Shown: positions 1 to 8,049 of the stretch, piece by piece
How the letters are laid out: each line of letters opens with the position of its first letter
How positions within the stretch are numbered: position 1 is the stretch's first letter
Source: Escherichia coli
GTDB taxonomy: Bacteria > Pseudomonadota > Gammaproteobacteria > Enterobacterales > Enterobacteriaceae
DNA length: 64,000 nt
Assembly: GCF_003019035.1 (NCBI RefSeq)
Contig: NZ_CP027447.1
Reading direction: 5' to 3' (one strand)
Made by a program: the position numbers and the translations under genes
Notes under the pieces: model-generated
Database searches by the model: none
Told to the model about the DNA's origin: nothing
Seen by the model: the letters and a program-made list of their open reading frames with translations, nothing else

Positions 1-233
1 AAACGACTTCACAATTATTGTTTAAAATCTGGACTTTCATTTCATACACCTGCTTTAACATGAGTGCCTAGTGGCACAACATGATTCAACGAATCATCCT
101 GGACTTCATATGCCCCAGGCGGCTACTTCGTGGGCGTCCTGCCTGTTTGTTGTTTCTCTTGGGTACATTATGTATCTCAAAGGTACATTGTCAAGTATAA
201 AAAAACCTGCCGAAGCAGGTTCATAAACATTGA

Positions 234-908
234 TTAGGCTTTGATTTTGTATCTTCTTGGTTTTCCTGAGAAAATCACAGTTCCAATTATAGAGCAATTA
301 CCGTTGATCTTAATGTAAGGCTCAGGCCAGTTTGGGTTTAACGCTTTGAGATAACGCTGTGTCCCATCTTCTATCAACCTTTTGAAGGTGGTTTCACCTG
401 TATCGTGCATCAATGCAATAACGTCGTCACCGTGGCAGGCAGGTACTTCAGGATCGACAAAAATCATGTCTCCCGGGCGGTACTCATCAATCATTGAATC
501 ACCTATCACCCGCAAGATATAAGTCATTTCCCCACAGGGTACAGGGCAGGGGTACGTTTCTGCTGTGCTCAAATCAACCTCAGAATATCCAACTTCTTTC
601 CATGCTCCGGCCTGTACCCATGATATGACAGGGACTAATGTGATTTGTTTATTAGTGATTGAAACATCAGGTTTTTTTGTGATGTTCGTTGTCTGGTGTT
701 CTTGATCGAGCCATCCGACAGGCAGGTCGAAACATTTTTCGATGTGTCGTGCCATGCTGTCACCGATATTTTTAGTAGCACCATCTCCCATAAACCTGCT
801 GGTCTGGGTTGGCTCGCGATCAATCATAGTGGCAAAGGAAGAATTCCCGCCAACACCATCTCTCAGTTTTCTGGCGTTAGACCGCCGGATGTCATGGATT
901 GTTTTCAT
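234..908 (-). CDS. CI-like phage repressor (LexA/S24 peptidase family)
   Basis: 224 aa; C-terminal S24 signature (GDSM serine motif, FKRL lysine motif); divergent from a Cro-like gene. Confidence 0.85.
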   Translation of the reverse strand: MKTIHDIRRSNARKLRDGVGGNSSFATMIDREPTQTSRFMGDGATKNIGDSMARHIEKCFDLPVGWLDQEHQTTNITKKPDVSITNKQITLVPVISWVQAGAWKEVGYSEVDLSTAETYPCPVPCGEMTYILRVIGDSMIDEYRPGDMIFVDPEVPACHGDDVIALMHDTGETTFKRLIEDGTQRYLKALNPNWPEPYIKINGNCSIIGTVIFSGKPRRYKIKA

Positions 909-998
909 AACGAAATTAAAACCCTTGTACCGTTAAGGTACAAGTATCTTGAAGGTTCATTTCAATCATGTAATATGTACACCGGAGGTACATATTGT
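909..998. promoter_or_regulatory. Divergent cI/cro operator-promoter region with palindromic operators
   Basis: Inverted repeats CTTGTACC-n5-GGTACAAG (~925-945) and ATGTAC-n7-GTACAT (~973-991) between divergent repressor and Cro-like genes; SD GGAGGT before the ATG at 999. Confidence 0.5.
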
Positions 999-1199
999 AT
1001 GAAAGCGTATTGGGACTCTTTAACCAAAGAACAGCAGGGCGAGTTGGCCGGAAAAGTTGGCTCAACACCTGGCTACTTACGGCTGGTTTTCAATGGCTAT
1101 AAAAAAGCCAGTTTTGTGCTGGCTAAAAAACTTGAGCAATACACATCAGGTGCAATTACGAAATCTGACTTAAGACCGGATATCTATCCGAAAGATTAG
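999..1199 (+). CDS. Cro-like small HTH regulator
   Basis: 66 aa from ATG 999 with an SD; position divergent from the repressor; the longer 696..1199 frame overlaps the repressor and is rejected. Confidence 0.6.
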   Translation: MKAYWDSLTKEQQGELAGKVGSTPGYLRLVFNGYKKASFVLAKKLEQYTSGAITKSDLRPDIYPKD

Positions 1200-1230
1200 C
1201 AGAACACTTTCAATTTTTAACCACAGAACG

Positions 1231-1794
1231 ATGAGGCTAATCGTGGGTAAGCATCACTGGAAAATAGAAAAACAGCCTGAGTGGTACGTGAAAGCTGTCA
1301 GAAAAACTATCGCGGCGTTGCCGGGTGGTTACGCTGAAGCGGCTGACTGGCTCGATGTAACAGAAAACGCTTTATTCAACCGCCTTCGTGCAGATGGCGA
1401 TCAGATTTTCCCGCTGGGATGGGCAATGGTTTTACAGCGTGCTGGTGGCACTCACTTCATTGCTGATGCTGTGGCGCAGTCTGCAAATGGCGTCTTTGTG
1501 TCTCTTCCTGACGTCGAGGATGTAGACAACGCCGATATCAACCAACGCCTGCTGGAGGTCATTGAACAGATCGGCAGTTATTCAAAACAGATTCGTTCAG
1601 CAATTGAAGACGGTGTAGTGGAACCACATGAGAAGACAGCAATTAACGATGAGCTGTACCTCTCAATTTCGAAGCTGCAGGAGCATGCAGCACTGGTCTA
1701 CAAAATCTTTTGCGTTTCAGAAAGTAGTGACGCCCGCGAGTGTGCAGCTCCGGGCGCCGTGGCGTGTCGTGACTGTGGAGAAACTAACGCATGA
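1231..1794 (+). CDS. Early regulatory protein (YdaT/YmfL-like)
   Basis: 187 aa immediately after cro; size and position match e14 YmfL / Rac YdaT-type proteins (recalled, not aligned). Confidence 0.45.
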
Positions 1795-2129
1795 ACAGTT
1801 TAACAACACACTACCGTCGCTCGCAACTGATTGCGCTTCCGGTTCCGGGTGGAAAAGCGAAGGTGGAGTATTGCTATGCAGTGAATGTACCAGGTGACAG
1901 GGAAATTGTAACCCACAGCTTTGCAGAGTGGGCTGTGGGGGATTTCAACCGGCAGAAGGAGACAGTCCTTTGCGACAAGTTAACCGCTGGTTCAAAGATC
2001 ACTACGGAGTGCCCGTCAGAGTCATTCGTTGGGAGCCGGAAACACAACGGGTTATCTACCTCCGCGAAGGCTATGAGCATGAGTGCTTCAGCCCGCTCGA
2101 ACAGTTTCGTCGTAAATTCAGGGAAATAG
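1791..2129 (+). CDS. Hypothetical early protein (YmfM-like); overlapping alternative frame 1928..2149
   Basis: 112 aa; ATGA start/stop overlap with the upstream gene; C-terminus is low-complexity and a second protein-like frame overlaps, so the exact frame is uncertain. Confidence 0.35.
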
Positions 2130-2138
2130 AGGTCGGTC

Positions 2139-3080
2139 ATGAGCACTAAATTAACCGGCTATGTATGGGATGGTTGCGCTGCGTCAGGCATGAAGTTATC
2201 CAGCGTGGCAATTATGGCCCGCCTGGCTGATTTCAGTAATGACGAAGGTGTGTGCTGGCCATCAATTGAAACCATTGCCCGCCAGATTGGCGCGGGGATG
2301 AGCACCGTCAGAACGGCTATCGCACGGCTGGAAGCAGAAGGCTGGTTAACGCGTAAGGCGCGTCGCCAGGGTAACCGCAATGCGTCGAATGTTTATCAGC
2401 TTAACGTTGCGAAGCTTCAGGCAGCGGCATTTTCTCAACTGTCAGATTCTGACCCGTCAAAATCTGACGCATCAAAATCTGACCAGTCAAAATTTGATGC
2501 GTCGAAATCTGGCAAAAAAGCGGGTTTTCACCCGTCAGAATCTGGCGGGGATCCGTCAGTAAAATCAAAACATGATCCGTCAGATAAAAAACCTTCTCGT
2601 CCGGACGCTTCGCAACCGGACACGCAGACGGATGAACAGGATTTTTTAACTCGCCATCCTGATGCGGTTGTATTCAGCCCTAAAAAGCGCCAGTGGGGAA
2701 CGCAGGATGATTTGACCTGCGCACAGTGGCTCTGGAAAAAAATCATCGCCCTGTACGAGCAGGCCGCCGAGTGTGACGGCGAGGTGGTTCGTCCCAAAGA
2801 ACCTAACTGGACAGCCTGGGCAAACGAAATTCGCCTGATGTGTGTGCAGGATGGTCGTACTCACAAACAAATCTGCGAGATGTATAGCCGCGTCAGCCGC
2901 GATCCGTTCTGGTGCCGTAACGTGCTCAGCCCGTCGAAGCTGCGGGAAAAATGGGATGAGCTTTCCCTGCGCTTATCGCCGTCCGTCAGCACGTACACCG
3001 AAAAACGCGAAGACCCGTACTTCAAAGCCAGTTACGACAATGTGGACTACAGCCAGATCCCGGCAGGATTCAGGGGGTGA
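2139..3080 (+). CDS. Phage replication initiation protein (O-like, N-terminal winged-helix DNA-binding domain)
   Basis: 313 aa; an internal DNA repeat array (iterons) encodes an SKSD-rich linker; position after the cro-proximal genes. Confidence 0.65.
   Translation: MSTKLTGYVWDGCAASGMKLSSVAIMARLADFSNDEGVCWPSIETIARQIGAGMSTVRTAIARLEAEGWLTRKARRQGNRNASNVYQLNVAKLQAAAFSQLSDSDPSKSDASKSDQSKFDASKSGKKAGFHPSESGGDPSVKSKHDPSDKKPSRPDASQPDTQTDEQDFLTRHPDAVVFSPKKRQWGTQDDLTCAQWLWKKIIALYEQAAECDGEVVRPKEPNWTAWANEIRLMCVQDGRTHKQICEMYSRVSRDPFWCRNVLSPSKLREKWDELSLRLSPSVSTYTEKREDPYFKASYDNVDYSQIPAGFRG
2441..2590. repeat. Iteron array (putative phage replication origin) inside the replication gene
   Basis: At least 6 direct copies of a ~12-bp unit (c)GTCAAAATCTGA(c) and variants at ~14-15 bp periodicity. 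Confidence 0.7.
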
Positions 3081-3571
3081 TCATGAGTCTTTTGAATGAC
3101 GTTCAGAAATTCATTGAAGCCCATCCGGGGTGTACTTCCGGAGACATTGCGGATGCTTTTGCAGGTTACTCACGACAGCGCGTTCTGCAGTCAGCAAGCA
3201 AGTTACGTCAGAGTGGGCGTGTGGCTCACCGTTGTGAAGGGGATACACGCAGACATTTCCCGCGGCTGACTGAGATACCGCAGGAGCCGGAACCGCAACC
3301 AGTTCGTGAATCCAGACCTGTGCGCAATTTCTATGTCGGCACTAACGATCCCCGGGTGATTTTGTGCCTGACCCGCCAGGCGGAAGAACTGGAGTCCAGG
3401 GGCTTATACCGTCGTGCTGCAACGGTGTGGATGGCGGCATTCCGTGAAAGCCACTCCCAGCAAGAGCGAAACAATTTTCTTGCGCGTCGTGAGCGGTGTT
3501 TACGGAAAAGCAGCAAGCGCGCTGTATCGGGTGAAGAGTGGTATCTGTCAGGGAATTACGTGGGGGCTTAA
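3077..3571 (+). CDS. PerC-family-like transcriptional regulator (tentative)
   Basis: 164 aa; the YRRAATVWMAAF segment resembles the RRAAxxW core I recall from PerC/Pch proteins; not aligned. Confidence 0.35.
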   Translation: MIMSLLNDVQKFIEAHPGCTSGDIADAFAGYSRQRVLQSASKLRQSGRVAHRCEGDTRRHFPRLTEIPQEPEPQPVRESRPVRNFYVGTNDPRVILCLTRQAEELESRGLYRRAATVWMAAFRESHSQQERNNFLARRERCLRKSSKRAVSGEEWYLSGNYVGA

Positions 3572-3897
3572 TGACGACGTTAACTCAATGCCAGCAGCAG
3601 GTGCTGGATATGCTGATTTCTTATCAGAAAGAGCGTGGCTTTCCGCCAACCAATCAGGAGGTGGCAACCATGCTGGGATACCGTTCGGTGAATGCAGCGG
3701 TGGAGCATCTTCGCGCACTGGAGAAAAAAGGTGTCATCACGATAAAGCGTGGCGTGGCCCGGGGTATCACTCTTCATACCGCGGTGAAGGACGACGACAG
3801 CGAGGCGGTCGGGATTATCCGCTCACTGCTTGCCGGTGAGGAAAACGCAAGGCTGCGTGCAACCCACTGGTTACATGAGAGGGGCCTGAAAGTATGA
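3571..3897 (+). CDS. LexA-N-terminal-type winged-helix DNA-binding protein
   Basis: 108 aa from ATG 3571; pattern similar to the LexA DNA-binding domain without a peptidase domain. Confidence 0.5.
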   Translation: MTTLTQCQQQVLDMLISYQKERGFPPTNQEVATMLGYRSVNAAVEHLRALEKKGVITIKRGVARGITLHTAVKDDDSEAVGIIRSLLAGEENARLRATHWLHERGLKV

Positions 3898-4283
3898 AGC
3901 TGATCCTGCCTTTCCCGCCCAGCGTGAACACGTACTGGCGACACCCCAACAAAGGGGCGTTTGCTGGTAAGAGCCTGATAAGCGCGGCGGGGCGAAAATT
4001 CCAGAGCGCGGCGTGCGCAGCAATAGTTGAGCAGTTACGTCGTCTGCCAAAACCAACGTCGGCACCTGCTTCAGTGGAGATCGTGTTGTTTCCTCCGGAT
4101 AACCGGATCCGCGATCTGGACAACTATAACAAGGCGCTGTTTGACGCCCTGACCCACGCGGGTGTGTGGGAAGACGACAGTCAGGTGAAAAGAATGCTGG
4201 TGGAGTGGGGACCGGTTATCCCGGAAGGGAAGGTCGAGATCACTATCAGTAAGTACGAGAAACCGGCGGGTGCAGCCGCCTGA
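3894..4283 (+). CDS. rusA: Holliday junction resolvase RusA
   Basis: 129 aa; N-terminal PPSVNTYW and central RDLDNYNKALFDAL motifs characteristic of RusA. Confidence 0.85.
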   Translation: MKLILPFPPSVNTYWRHPNKGAFAGKSLISAAGRKFQSAACAAIVEQLRRLPKPTSAPASVEIVLFPPDNRIRDLDNYNKALFDALTHAGVWEDDSQVKRMLVEWGPVIPEGKVEITISKYEKPAGAAA

Positions 4284-4302
4284 TTAAGAGGAGAAACGAA
4301 GT

Positions 4303-5100
4303 ATGAATAATCTGATGGTCATTGATGGTATTGAAGTTCGTCGTGATGCTTATGGGCGTTACAGCCTGAACGATCTGCACAGGGCTGCCGGTTCTCTGGA
4401 TAAGCATAAGCCTGCATTCTGGCTCCGCAATGAGCAAACTGAACGTTTAATAAGCGAGTTGCAGATTTGCAACTCGGTCAATATAGAGCCAGTTAACGTT
4501 ATTCGTGGTGGAAATAACCAGGGGACGTATGTCTGCAAAGAACTGGTGTATGCCTATGCAATGTGGATCAGCCCGTCATTCCATCTGAAGGTGATCCGTA
4601 CTTTCGACATGGTAACCAGCGCACCTGAAAAATTATCCGGACAGGCTGCTGACAAGATGCAGGCTGGCGTGATTCTGCTGGACTTTATGCGCCGGGAGTT
4701 AAATCTGTCTAACTCTTCAGTGCTTGGAGCCTGTCAGAAACTTCAGGAGGCTGTTGGCTTACCGAATCTGGCACCGCGCTATGCCATTGATGCTCCTGCT
4801 GATGCACACGATGGCTCAAGTCGCCCTACGCTGTCACTGAGTGCACTGCTGAAACAGTATGGTATCCGCCTGACGGCTAATCAGGCATATCACCAGATGG
4901 TGAAGCTGGGGATCGTCGAGCAGCGCGAACGATACAGCCGTACCGCGATTAACAACATCAAAAAATTCTGGTCGCTGACAGCGAAAGGCTGCATGTTCGG
5001 CAAGAACATCACCAGTCCCGCAAATCCGCGCGAGACGCAGCCGCATTTCTTCGAGTCCCGATTCCCTGAGCTGTTAAAGCTGCTCGATACCGTTCATTGA
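4303..5100 (+). CDS. KilA-N domain protein
   Basis: 265 aa; N-terminal KilA-N-like region (YSLNDLHRAAG ... KPAFWLRNEQT). Confidence 0.6.
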   Translation: MNNLMVIDGIEVRRDAYGRYSLNDLHRAAGSLDKHKPAFWLRNEQTERLISELQICNSVNIEPVNVIRGGNNQGTYVCKELVYAYAMWISPSFHLKVIRTFDMVTSAPEKLSGQAADKMQAGVILLDFMRRELNLSNSSVLGACQKLQEAVGLPNLAPRYAIDAPADAHDGSSRPTLSLSALLKQYGIRLTANQAYHQMVKLGIVEQRERYSRTAINNIKKFWSLTAKGCMFGKNITSPANPRETQPHFFESRFPELLKLLDTVH

Positions 5101-5101
5101 G

Positions 5102-6097
5102 GTGACCGTGAGAGCACTACTGACCCCTGAAATTGCCCCGCGTATGGGGATCGTATTGTTCAGACCAGGTTCAGAGCTGATGCCCCTGTTTATGCAGGGG
5201 CGTGTCCTGCTGGAGCCTGAGCCGGAACGTTATTCATCTTTCGCCAGTGGTGCCGTTCCGGCGGCATCACAACCGCTGGCGGATGATCCTGCCGTTCGGG
5301 CCGTGTTCCGCAATGAGGCAGTGATCCGTCGTGCTGGTGGCGTGGAATGTCTTGAAAGCTGGTTACTTCGTGAAAAAGGCTGCCAGTGGCCTCATTCCGA
5401 CTGGCACAGCGAGAACATGACCACAATGCGACACGCTCCGGGCGCAATCCGTCTGTGCTGGCACTGCGATAACCAGCTGCGCGATCAGTTCACGGAACGG
5501 CTGGAATCAATGGCAACGGATAACTGTGCCCGCTGGGTGTTGTCTGTTGTGCGTCGGGATCTTGGTTTTGATGACAGTCACGTTGTGACAATGCCGGAAC
5601 TGTGCTGGTGGCTGGTTCGTAATGATCTGGCGGATGCCTTACCGGAAAGCGCAGCCCGTAAGGCACTGAGATTACCGAAGCCTGTTGTGCAGGCGGTCAC
5701 CCGGGAAAGTGACCTTGTACCTTCGGTTCCTGCCACCAGCATTATCCAGGATAAAGCGAAAAAGGTGCTGGCGCTGAAAGTGGATCCGGAGTCGCCGGAG
5801 TCTTTTATGTTACGCCCAAAACGCCGCCGCTGGGTTAATGAAAAGTACACGCGCTGGGTTAAGACACAGCCGTGTGCATGTTGTGGAAAGCCTGCTGATG
5901 ATCCCCACCACCTGATAGGTCACGGTCAGGGTGGAATGGGTACAAAAGCGCATGACCTCTTTGTGTTGCCTTTGTGCAGAAAGCATCACGACGAGCTGCA
6001 TGCGGATACCGTGGCATTTGAAGAGAAGTATGGCTCCCAGCTGGAGCTGATATTTCGTTTTATCGATCGTGCACTGGCAATTGGCGTGCTGGCCTGA
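5102..6097 (+). CDS. Phage protein, DUF968-like (zinc-binding C-terminus)
   Basis: 331 aa; C-terminal CxxC...HH cluster (CACCGKPADDPHHLIGHG ... CRKHHDELH) typical of the lambdoid DUF968 family. Confidence 0.5.
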   Translation: MTVRALLTPEIAPRMGIVLFRPGSELMPLFMQGRVLLEPEPERYSSFASGAVPAASQPLADDPAVRAVFRNEAVIRRAGGVECLESWLLREKGCQWPHSDWHSENMTTMRHAPGAIRLCWHCDNQLRDQFTERLESMATDNCARWVLSVVRRDLGFDDSHVVTMPELCWWLVRNDLADALPESAARKALRLPKPVVQAVTRESDLVPSVPATSIIQDKAKKVLALKVDPESPESFMLRPKRRRWVNEKYTRWVKTQPCACCGKPADDPHHLIGHGQGGMGTKAHDLFVLPLCRKHHDELHADTVAFEEKYGSQLELIFRFIDRALAIGVLA

Positions 6098-6114
6098 TTT
6101 TGTGGAGAAAGTTG

Positions 6115-6456
6115 ATGCGTGATATGTATGAAGTATTGGACCGCTGGGGTGCATGGGCTGCAGCAGATAACAGTGGTGTGGACTGGCAGCCTGTTGCTGC
6201 AGGGTTTAAAGGTTTACTACCTCATGGAAAGAAAACACGCCAACAATGCGATGATGATGAAGGAATCATGATTGACAGCTGTGTTGCGCGATTGCGGAAA
6301 TATAAGCCCGAAGAGTATGAGTTGGTTATTGCTCATTTTGTTATCGGCATCTCACTAAGAACTATTGCAAAGAAGCAGAAGTGTTCTGATGGGACAATAA
6401 GAAAAGAGTTGCAAACAGCTCTTGGTTTTCTGGATGGTGTGCTTTCAATGTTGTAA
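6115..6456 (+). CDS. Late-gene antiterminator Q-like protein
   Basis: ~113 aa; last early gene before the late region; DRWGAW-containing N-terminus resembles small Q-type antiterminators (recalled). Confidence 0.5.
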   Translation: MRDMYEVLDRWGAWAAADNSGVDWQPVAAGFKGLLPHGKKTRQQCDDDEGIMIDSCVARLRKYKPEEYELVIAHFVIGISLRTIAKKQKCSDGTIRKELQTALGFLDGVLSML

Positions 6457-6460
6457 TATT

Positions 6461-6486
6461 AGGGGGAATTACCCCCCTTTTTTTCT
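6461..6486 (+). terminator. Rho-independent terminator after the Q-like gene
   Basis: GGGGG-AATTA-CCCCC hairpin followed by a run of 8 T; overlaps the last codons of the convergent membrane-protein gene. Confidence 0.6.
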
Positions 6487-7017
6487 CTGTTGCTTTAATA
6501 AAATTTTGATATTTTGTCTGATTATGATGAGGCAATGTAATAAAAGAAATACCGTTAGTATTGCAAGCCATACGCAAAATAAGCATGCATATAAATTAGT
6601 TGAAAGTCCAATAGTGAATTGTGCAATTGCTGTTGTGATAGAACATAATATTGATGTATTAATAAATGAGGATAAATTGTCTAAAGGTTTATAAAGTACA
6701 CTATCATTGATTTTGTCAATAGGTATACCAGTGGCAATGCTATAAATTTCCTTATATTCCTGAGTTGCAAAAACCTTATCGCGTAAATTTATTATGACAA
6801 AGGTATGCAGGCTCAATAAAAATGAGCCCACGGAAATAAAACCGGAGAAGAGATAGCCTCGTAAGTTTTTATGATAAAAATCAAAAAAGTTAACACTTAC
6901 TTTAGGTGTGTTTCTGTACAATAGGTAAAGTGCAAGCAATGCCAGGATCGAGAATGCAAGCAGTGTAAGGTACTGATACCTCAATCTTTTATTTATTAGC
7001 CATTCATATAAAGGCAT
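6469..7017 (-). CDS. Small integral membrane protein with four predicted helices, downstream gene of the two-gene moron
   Basis: 182 aa; hydrophobic segments at about residues 16-34, 45-68, 117-137 and 142-165; basic C-terminus (QQRKKGG); translationally coupled to the 308-aa gene. Confidence 0.55.
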   Translation of the reverse strand: MPLYEWLINKRLRYQYLTLLAFSILALLALYLLYRNTPKVSVNFFDFYHKNLRGYLFSGFISVGSFLLSLHTFVIINLRDKVFATQEYKEIYSIATGIPIDKINDSVLYKPLDNLSSFINTSILCSITTAIAQFTIGLSTNLYACLFCVWLAILTVFLLLHCLIIIRQNIKILLKQQRKKGG

Positions 7018-7930
7018 TTTTATTCGTCCCGTTCAGCATTTCTTCTTTTATCATATCAAAAACAGGGTTTGTTGTATAATTATCGTTTGTCAATCCATTG
7101 ACTTTATCGGCAATTATATCGAAATCGTATGTTTCAAAAAAAACAGGGCAGTTCATAAAATCAATGGTTTTTTCTATTCCTGCATGGTTTACTGCAATAA
7201 CCTGTGCTTTAGTAACTCCACTCATAGAATTATAAATATTTGAAAGATTCTGAGATAGTTGTTGCACTTTTGTTCTGTCGCTAGAATTAAAATTCATATC
7301 TATTGTGGTGGTGTTAACAAATTGTTCAAGCGCAGTCATTGGTCCACCTTTAAAATCTATATAATTAAATTTAAAGCTTGTGCTTTTAATCTCTTTGAAT
7401 TGACATAAAACACTCTGAATGTTGTTTTTATTTGTCATAAGGCTGAAAGTCAGTCTTTCTTTGTATTTTTTATTTATTGCAGTTACTTCTTTTTGTTTTG
7501 GTTTATCACCAAGTTTTTTTATTTCTTCTTTATTTTGATTTCTGATAAATTCATTACTTATTGTTTCTAAATGAGAAAAGAGAGTGTTCAGACTGCATGA
7601 ACCGTGGTGATACATATAGAGACCAGAAAGATTAGATTTTTTAATTAAGAAAAAGTTGAAATTAGCAAGTTTGTCACTTCCTTGAAGATCTTCAATTTTA
7701 AGCTGGAATTTACCATCAACAAATTGCGACTTACAGTTCTTTTTTTGGTTTCTGAATGTGACAACTAATCCATAATAGAAATCATTCACATCCGAAATGA
7801 GAATTTTACGAGTATAGTCTGTGCGACTGTGTTCTCTGTTTGATGCGTTGATAAAAGCATTCATTACGTCAACGGTATTAATATTTTTGTTATTGTTATT
7901 TATTGTAAATCCTATGCTTCTAACTTTCAT
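7004..7930 (-). CDS. Hypothetical protein, upstream gene of a two-gene moron (candidate sensor/effector partner)
   Basis: 308 aa, Asn/Lys-rich and AT-rich coding sequence; its stop overlaps the start of the downstream membrane-protein gene by 14 nt; no recognisable catalytic motif. Confidence 0.55.
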   Translation of the reverse strand: MKVRSIGFTINNNNKNINTVDVMNAFINASNREHSRTDYTRKILISDVNDFYYGLVVTFRNQKKNCKSQFVDGKFQLKIEDLQGSDKLANFNFFLIKKSNLSGLYMYHHGSCSLNTLFSHLETISNEFIRNQNKEEIKKLGDKPKQKEVTAINKKYKERLTFSLMTNKNNIQSVLCQFKEIKSTSFKFNYIDFKGGPMTALEQFVNTTTIDMNFNSSDRTKVQQLSQNLSNIYNSMSGVTKAQVIAVNHAGIEKTIDFMNCPVFFETYDFDIIADKVNGLTNDNYTTNPVFDMIKEEMLNGTNKNAFI

Positions 7931-8049
7931 GTGTATTCCAGGACCGACTAAAGATAGCGAGAATGGGGACGCATAGTTTATAAAAATCCTAACGCGTACG
8001 CAAAAAGTATTATATCGTGTTAAGAGTGGTTACTTCGCCACACAACTTA

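Follow-up and report, generated by a model that had tools for sequence, protein, structure and literature searches.

Positions 2441 to 2597 of a 64,000-nucleotide stretch of Escherichia coli DNA (NCBI RefSeq assembly GCF_003019035.1, contig NZ_CP027447.1; the whole analysed stretch is hereafter called the window) are very probably the vegetative origin of a lambdoid prophage of the SfIV/SfII/CPS-53 type. The putative origin lies inside the gene for the phage replication initiator, in the part that encodes a disordered linker, and is composed of six short palindromic repeats, or iterons, followed by a candidate DNA-unwinding element. An intragenic origin is the known and expected arrangement in lambdoid phages, and the SfIV-type element is a previously uncharacterised case of it: full-text literature searches returned no description of an origin for the SfIV-type initiator family, and the SfIV genome paper is silent on the subject.

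Iterons and adjoining DNA in the initiator gene

The iteron unit is a 13-bp imperfect palindrome with the consensus GTCArAwTCTGAC. Five copies, GTCAGATTCTGAC at 2441, GTCAAAATCTGAC at 2456, ATCAAAATCTGAC at 2471, GTCAAAATTTGAT at 2486 and GTCGAAATCTGGC at 2501, follow each other with starts exactly 15 bp, or five codons, apart, and a sixth, isolated copy stands beyond a spacer whose succession of an A-run and a T-run recurs in relatives. The array was recognised by Tandem Repeats Finder (2448-2511, period 15, 4.3 copies) and by a second repeat search, and the pattern GTCARAWTCTGAC, with at most two mismatches, gave 18 strand-matches in the 64 kb compared with 4.8 +/- 2.4 in shuffled sequences, none of 100 shuffles reaching 18. 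Eleven of these strand-matches, belonging to six sites, are packed within 106 bp, and the dyad symmetry of the unit (GTCAGA-T-TCTGAC) is seen in five of the six sites, which match the pattern on both strands. No other sizeable tandem array was found in the window. The repeat array that the original prediction, made from the sequence letters, had placed inside the initiator gene is thus real and non-random. Its dimensions need correction: repeats of about 12 bp at 14-15 bp spacing had been proposed, where the unit is a palindrome of 13 bp and the spacing is exactly 15 bp. Folding of the array as single-stranded DNA (z=-5) was not used as evidence, because the sites are palindromes and the result is trivial.

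The array is read in frame within the 313-amino-acid open reading frame (ORF) and encodes the peptide SDSDPSKSDASKSDQSKFDASKSG. The repetitive SKSD linker noted earlier is indeed encoded there, and it is predicted to be disordered: an AlphaFold2 model, run on an alignment of 36 sequences, consists of an N-terminal domain with an H-H-H-H-E-E topology (pLDDT 73-90), a disordered linker (amino acids 103-161, pLDDT below 40) and a helical domain predicted with confidence (amino acids 162-280). Because the predicted disorder spans amino acids 103-161, the array and the AT-rich element, which correspond to amino acids 101-153, fall into the linker.

Two 24-bp copies of GATCCGTCAGtAAAAtcAAAACAT, starting at 2550 and 2574, make up the candidate unwinding element, and each of them has a left half-site, CCGTCAG; a third half-site, TTTCAC-CC-, precedes the sixth iteron. 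A nearest-neighbour calculation finds the weakest 45-mer of the gene 11 bp past the last iteron, with its start at 2557 (+2.7 standard deviations), and the region also holds the least stable 30-bp duplex of the gene; applied to lambda O, the calculation recovers the known AT-rich region just to the right of iteron 4. An AT-rich stretch had been expected just downstream of the repeats; the DNA there is the least stable duplex of the gene but is moderately AT-rich only, with a GC content of 0.35-0.36 as against 0.24 in lambda, and gives no clear answer on this expectation. Conservation of the element at the DNA level extends to each of the 11 loci examined, including subfamilies with different iterons; a pair of GATC sites, separated by 24 or 21 bp, is kept in 10 of the 11, and the DPSV residues that it encodes are invariant across 36 homologues. 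Control of the putative origin by Dam and SeqA is possible. As an observation in its own right, the GATC pair is also present in loci L001, L004-L007, L009 and L012-L014, and an adenine methylase gene lies one or two genes downstream in many relatives (phiNP, SfV, mEp460_4F5, Klebsiella phage ST101-KPC2phi6.3, YeP1, L017, L018, L020 and, as yfdM, K-12); the window itself is without one.

The predicted iteron reader and selection on the array

On sequence comparison, the initiator is a chimera in which an HTH_36 N-terminal domain is joined to a C-terminal domain of the lambda O type. Pfam places HTH_36 at amino acids 23-70 (E=4e-11), the families listed for the protein being HTH_36, GntR, HTH_29, PaaX, DnaD_N, RP-C and MarR only; a Phage_rep_O N-terminal domain was not found by Pfam, and BLASTP against lambda O aligns no N-terminal domain. 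The Foldseek matches of the N-terminal domain are winged helices of the MarR/ArsR type, several of them solved on DNA. Winged helices of this type bind palindromes as dimers, and the N-terminal domain is the predicted reader of the iterons. In the C-terminal half, amino acids ~130-277 align by BLASTP with residues 138-270 of lambda O (E=1e-25), sharing the core WGTxxDLTxAxW...NWxxWANxIRLMxxxDGRxH...FWxxNVLSPxKLRxKW, and tblastn of lambda O matches the window at 2529-2969 (E=5e-23). The gene also matches PHROG 391, 'replication initiation O-like' (E=9e-135), and its earlier description as an O-like replication protein is upheld. The C-terminal domain of lambda O is its P-interacting domain. Similarity to phage mEp460_4F5 starts at window position 2581 and similarity to Citrobacter phage phiNP ends at 2617, and modules have apparently been exchanged by recombination at the joint near these positions (SRPDASQPD), which phages with differing N- or C-terminal modules have in common.

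The N-terminal domain and the repeats travel together. Seven phages from Citrobacter, Klebsiella, Escherichia, Yersinia and other sources (phiNP, a Klebsiella phage, Flotzy, YeP1, EKP1, KH16-043 and phiP27) share both the N-terminal domain (60-87% amino-acid identity) and the 15-bp-spaced motif while carrying four different C-terminal domains, and a position matrix of 39 copies in eight phages gives the consensus cc-G-TCA-R-A-W-TCTG-A-C. Phage mEp460_4F5 has the same C-terminal domain as the window's initiator, an unrelated N-terminal domain and, at the equivalent place, different repeats of 21-23 bp; SfV, 24B and a Vibrio phage have other N-terminal domains, each with its own repeats. Among E. 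coli prophages, three diverged N-domain subfamilies go with three iteron variants, all of 15-bp period (GTCArAwTCTGAC, GTCAA-N3-TTGAC in L012 and GTCCAGAwTCTGGAC in L013), and the Klebsiella prophage L014 has the variant GTTCAGAwTCTGAAC. Absence of the repeats from functional relatives had been named as an observation that would speak against an origin; every isolated phage examined has an array. These comparisons indicate that N-terminal domain and iterons together make up a single specificity module, as is classical for lambdoid phages, and that the C-terminal domains are freely swapped.

Two of the phages with other N-terminal domains deserve a note of their own. In mEp460_4F5 (L002:2355-2513), four or five lambda-style palindromic repeats (ATCGGGTCAAAGTGACCTGAT) at 23-24-bp spacing are followed by three 12-bp AT-rich repeats (ACAGAGAATAmAAC), and in gene O of phage 24B (L011, ~1708-1790) the linker, which encodes a (GGAGAA) peptide, holds three copies of the palindrome GGGGCAGGAGCTGCCC, presumably that phage's iteron set. 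The study of Kozlowska et al. 2020 (PMC7466680) was considered as experimental support and rejected: the 'P27' O protein described there is lambda-like, with two substitutions and ATCCCTCAAAACGAGGGA iterons, whereas L17 in the GenBank record of phiP27 (AJ298298) is an HTH_36-type initiator of the SfIV-type family, followed by DnaC. The two proteins are not the same, and the study is therefore not relevant to this family.

Codon usage points to selection on the DNA. When the gene is compared with that of phiNP, identity in the N-terminal domain is 87% for amino acids and 79% for nucleotides, and only 52% of the conserved residues there keep their codon, whereas the repeat and unwinding region (amino acids 101-153) is 81% identical in amino acids and 90% in nucleotides, with the same codon at 95% of conserved residues (Fisher p=2e-7 for the contrast in codon retention). 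Six further phages show the contrast in the same direction, with p from 9e-7 to 0.05. The two serines encoded by each unit always have the codons TCA and TCT, respectively, from which the dyad symmetry of the unit follows. In phiP27 (L009:1952-1964) and Stx2_KH16-043 (L008:1967-1979), one full copy, tttGACCCTTCAGAATCTGrc, is kept in another reading frame, where it reads LTLQNL instead of FDPSDSG. From the codon conservation, the off-frame copy and the fixed serine codons, we conclude that selection keeps the DNA of the array and not the peptide. The copy number is variable: alleles with one copy (L017, P0017), two copies (L016, P0016) and six copies (the window) occur in proteins that are otherwise ~98-99% identical, and a Klebsiella relative (L018, P0046) has ten. 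These deletions and expansions are in register and proceed in five-residue steps; because the period is five codons, gain or loss of a repeat never shifts the reading frame of the initiator. In sum, the sequence-level predictions of the original reading as intragenic phage origin iterons, namely frozen codons, co-variation with the N-terminal domain and a position in the linker, are supported.

We propose that initiation would proceed as follows. The N-terminal winged helix would bind the 13-bp palindromes, probably as dimers, since proteins of this fold class are dimers and the sites have dyad symmetry, and the six sites, five of them with a centre-to-centre spacing of 15 bp, would assemble an O-some-like nucleoprotein complex. 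This complex would strain and open the adjacent 48-bp, GATC-bearing, AT-rich element, and the lambda-O-type C-terminal domain, together with the tail VDYSxIPxGFRG, would recruit the helicase machinery of the host with no help from a P, DnaC or helicase gene of the phage.

The K-12 remnant and competing explanations

Sequence comparison also identifies the initiator as the intact form of the yfdO pseudogene of E. coli K-12 (prophage CPS-53/KpLE1). The K-12 yfdO-yfdP 'spacer' is the same DNA as the window's array, a 5' remnant of an N-terminally truncated initiator gene in which the whole array and the AT-rich element are retained (NC_000913.3 2473247-2473603, corresponding to L023:3248-3604; also L015:2502-2740). 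Loss of the first 233 nt of the gene is what turned this stretch into a spacer. The window and the K-12 copy differ by one base in iteron 1 (GATTC versus GACTC) and by one base in a spacer. In a genomic SELEX screen of K-12 for targets of the LysR-type regulator SrsR (YgfI), Kobayashi et al. 2022 found their strongest peak at this spacer (intensity 1206, the others, as read from Table 1, ~150-300), several complexes in gel shifts and a DNase I footprint of 66 bp in vitro, with four 11-bp boxes (TCAaATTTTGa, TCAGATTTTGa, TCAGATTTTGa and TCAGAgTcTGa); yfdO mRNA was down 3.7- to 9.5-fold in an srsR mutant, and yfdONMLK mRNA was affected by SrsR (PMC9181523). Their paper regards this DNA as an intergenic promoter region, with no mention of iterons or of an origin (PMC9181523); the K-12 SrsR site was not recognised as origin repeats. 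The four boxes, in the order given above, correspond exactly, as reverse complements, to K-12 iterons 4, 3, 2 and 1, and the published footprint makes the K-12 array a specific multi-site protein target.

The array might accordingly be thought of as primarily an operator cluster through which SrsR controls the downstream genes (yfdONMLK in K-12), and not as an origin, an explanation favoured by the binding and expression data just described and by the match between boxes and iterons. We nevertheless consider it very unlikely. In intact phages the array sits in coding sequence and not in a promoter region, the K-12 spacer having arisen only through loss of the start of the gene. The three iteron variants present in one host species are each matched to an N-terminal domain, which a single host regulator cannot explain, and the array is kept in phages of Klebsiella, Citrobacter and Yersinia and in Pantoea prophages. 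The footprint, moreover, required 10-40 uM SrsR (PMC9181523), and no sequence similarity was found between SrsR and the N-terminal domain of the initiator. We regard SrsR binding as a secondary or adventitious use of the array. A broader combination, in which the array serves both as origin iterons and as the strongest SrsR target, with the host factor gating replication or driving expression, and in which the C-terminal tail recruits the host helicase machinery without a loader, is unlikely to hold in all its parts jointly.

Two further explanations leave the phage origin elsewhere or dispense with it. The repeats could be initiator sites for autoregulation or copy control only, through titration or handcuffing, with duplex opening and initiation elsewhere in the phage. 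Such roles are established for plasmid iterons (reviewed in PMC4980987), the AT-rich element is weak, and no DnaA-box or integration host factor (IHF) consensus was found nearby (2000-3200); but the window is without another tandem array, the conserved GATC-bearing element accompanies the iterons in 11 of 11 loci and the layout mirrors the lambda origin, with iterons beside the opening site, so that this restricted role appears quite improbable. Least credible, to the point of being close to negligible, is an array without any DNA-level function that results from selection for a low-complexity Ser/Lys/Asp linker or from slippage. The peptide is repetitive, (SKSD)n, and predicted to be disordered, and the copy number does change by five residues, as such an origin of the repeats would have it. 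However, nucleotides are conserved above amino acids, with almost all conserved residues keeping their codon, fixed and different serine codons create the dyad, one copy is retained in another reading frame and the published footprinting makes the DNA a specific protein target (PMC9181523).

Several points also weigh against an origin at 2441-2597. A spacing of 15 bp, ~1.4 helical turns, is atypical when compared with 20-24 bp in lambda and ~22 bp in plasmid iterons, and chromosomal variants with just one or two copies exist (P0017 and P0016). The unwinding element, besides its modest AT content, ranks only in the least stable tenth to sixth, approximately, of positions in the 64-kb window. 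The sole published protein binding to the array is that of a host regulator and not of the initiator (PMC9181523). Finally, tblastn found no lambda P homologue in the 64-kb window, and of the ORFs examined in the early-right region (1-8000) none was recognised as coding for a helicase or a helicase loader.

Known origins, the C-terminal tail and the prophage

The closest model is the lambda origin in gene O. In both systems, dyad-symmetric repeats lie in the interdomain linker of the initiator ORF, the repeats are directly followed, on their right, by the least stable duplex, and N-terminal domain and iterons exchange as one module while the C-terminal domain is homologous. The lambda record has four 18-bp iterons in O, with starts 20-24 bp apart, at the equivalent position, whereas the window has 13-bp units at 15-bp spacing in 5+1 copies (naturally 1 to 10). 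The N-terminal domain is Phage_rep_O in lambda and HTH_36 here, and here the unwinding element has a lower AT content and two GATC sites, the P gene is absent and the C-terminal tail is different. Gene 18 of P22 and gene 18 of phage L likewise encode lambdoid initiators with family-specific short intragenic repeats, and the six imprecise 11-bp repeats of phage L were inferred to be its origin on the same reasoning (PMC8022706). Their repeat sequences and N-terminal domains differ from those described here, and they encode a DnaB-type helicase (gp12) beside the initiator, of which there is none here. Plasmid replicons (pPS10 RepA, R6K pi and RK2 TrfA) also combine a winged-helix initiator with a tandem array beside an unwinding element, binding being predicted in the present case; their iterons, 17-22 bp in length, are located outside the rep gene and stand about two helical turns apart, their Rep proteins have a WH1-WH2 (Rep_3) architecture and DnaA boxes are usual. 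Pfam gave no Rep_3 match in the initiator.

The C-terminal tail is of interest with regard to the missing loader. The tail VDYSxIPxGFR[GSTV] occurs in 12 loci (the window, L001, L002, L003, L004, L005, L012-L014 and L016-L018) with three unrelated types of C-terminal domain, and in none of the 12 does a loader or helicase gene follow downstream, whereas all six loci with a P, DnaC, toprim or helicase gene downstream are without that tail; this correlation between tail and partner gene rests on loci that are themselves correlated, not independent. Two Pantoea homologues have a lambda-like tail (...NTDWIYGIEE...) followed by a Phage_lambda_P gene. The VDYSxIPxGFR[GSTV] tail is thus a candidate site at which a replication factor of the host may dock.

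The prophage region from 234 to 6456 comprises immunity and early-right genes, the positions of which are collected below together with the features of the initiator gene. Along its whole length, the initiator gene has 97.7-98.8% identity to genes in 14 phage records, among them those of Shigella phages SfIV and SfII and of E. coli phages Kati and PhiR29, and at least 80% of it is found in 1575 of 5426 complete E. coli genomes. A promoter scan of 900-3700 gave no sigma-70-like sites, and Rfam and tRNA scans had no match at the initiator locus. A terminator-like hairpin on the minus strand (2521-2534) was dismissed because relatives are without it, and small ORFs in other frames (2380-2562 on the plus strand and 2401-2568 on the minus strand) were set aside, since they stay open only by virtue of the repeat symmetry. 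Just downstream of the antiterminator gene Q, a two-gene insert on the minus strand (6469-7930) encodes proteins of 308 and 182 amino acids, the latter hydrophobic-looking; neither was matched by Pfam or PADLOC, and the insert may be a moron or defence cargo. The sole Rfam match in the window is IS009 (RF02111; 36562-36763, plus strand, 191.7 bits, above the gathering score).

Features of the initiator gene, the putative origin and neighbouring genes in the window
Feature	Position	Strand	Remarks
cI-like S24 repressor	234-908	-	
CII/CP76-like protein	1231-1794		
DUF4222 protein	1928-2149		
Replication initiator gene, 313 amino acids	2139-3080	+	ORF; phage matches; PHROG 391
N-terminal winged-helix DNA-binding domain (predicted), amino acids 1-102	2139-2444	+	Pfam HTH_36, AlphaFold2, Foldseek
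Five tandem iterons, 13-bp palindromes GTCArAwTCTGAC	2441-2513		starts 2441, 2456, 2471, 2486, 2501
Spacer between iterons 5 and 6	2514-2533		A6 tract, then T4 tract (AAAAAAGCGGGTTTTCACCC)
Sixth, isolated iteron, GTCAGAATCTGGC	2534-2546		starts 33 bp after the start of the fifth; kept in all relatives
Candidate DNA-unwinding element, two 24-bp repeats	2550-2597		GATC starts each repeat, at 2550 and 2574
Conserved joint, TCTCGTCCGGACGCTTCGCAACCGGAC	2595-2621	+	apparent exchange point of N- and C-terminal modules between phages
C-terminal helical domain, amino acids 162-280	2622-2978	+	homologous to the P-interacting domain of lambda O
C-terminal tail, VDYSQIPAGFRG, amino acids 302-313	3042-3077	+	
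PerC-like protein	3077-3571		next gene after the initiator
LexA-DBD protein, RusA, KilA-N protein, DUF968/HNH protein, antiterminator Q			in this order after the PerC-like gene

The initiator gene is widespread, being found in E. coli genomes, in serotype-converting phages of Shigella and in the CPS-53 remnant of K-12, and its array is a clear case of dual coding, in which a protein-binding DNA array lies inside a disordered linker and a five-codon period tolerates changes in copy number. For the most part, the 'SrsR box' consensus of K-12 goes back to the probable origin iterons of a phage, preserved in a replication gene that has decayed, and this bears on the reading of the SrsR regulon; if SrsR does act at origin iterons, a stationary-phase host regulator could occupy a prophage origin. 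Finally, the correlation between tail type and partner gene provides a lead on how lambdoid initiators without a P, DnaC or helicase gene may recruit the helicase of their host.

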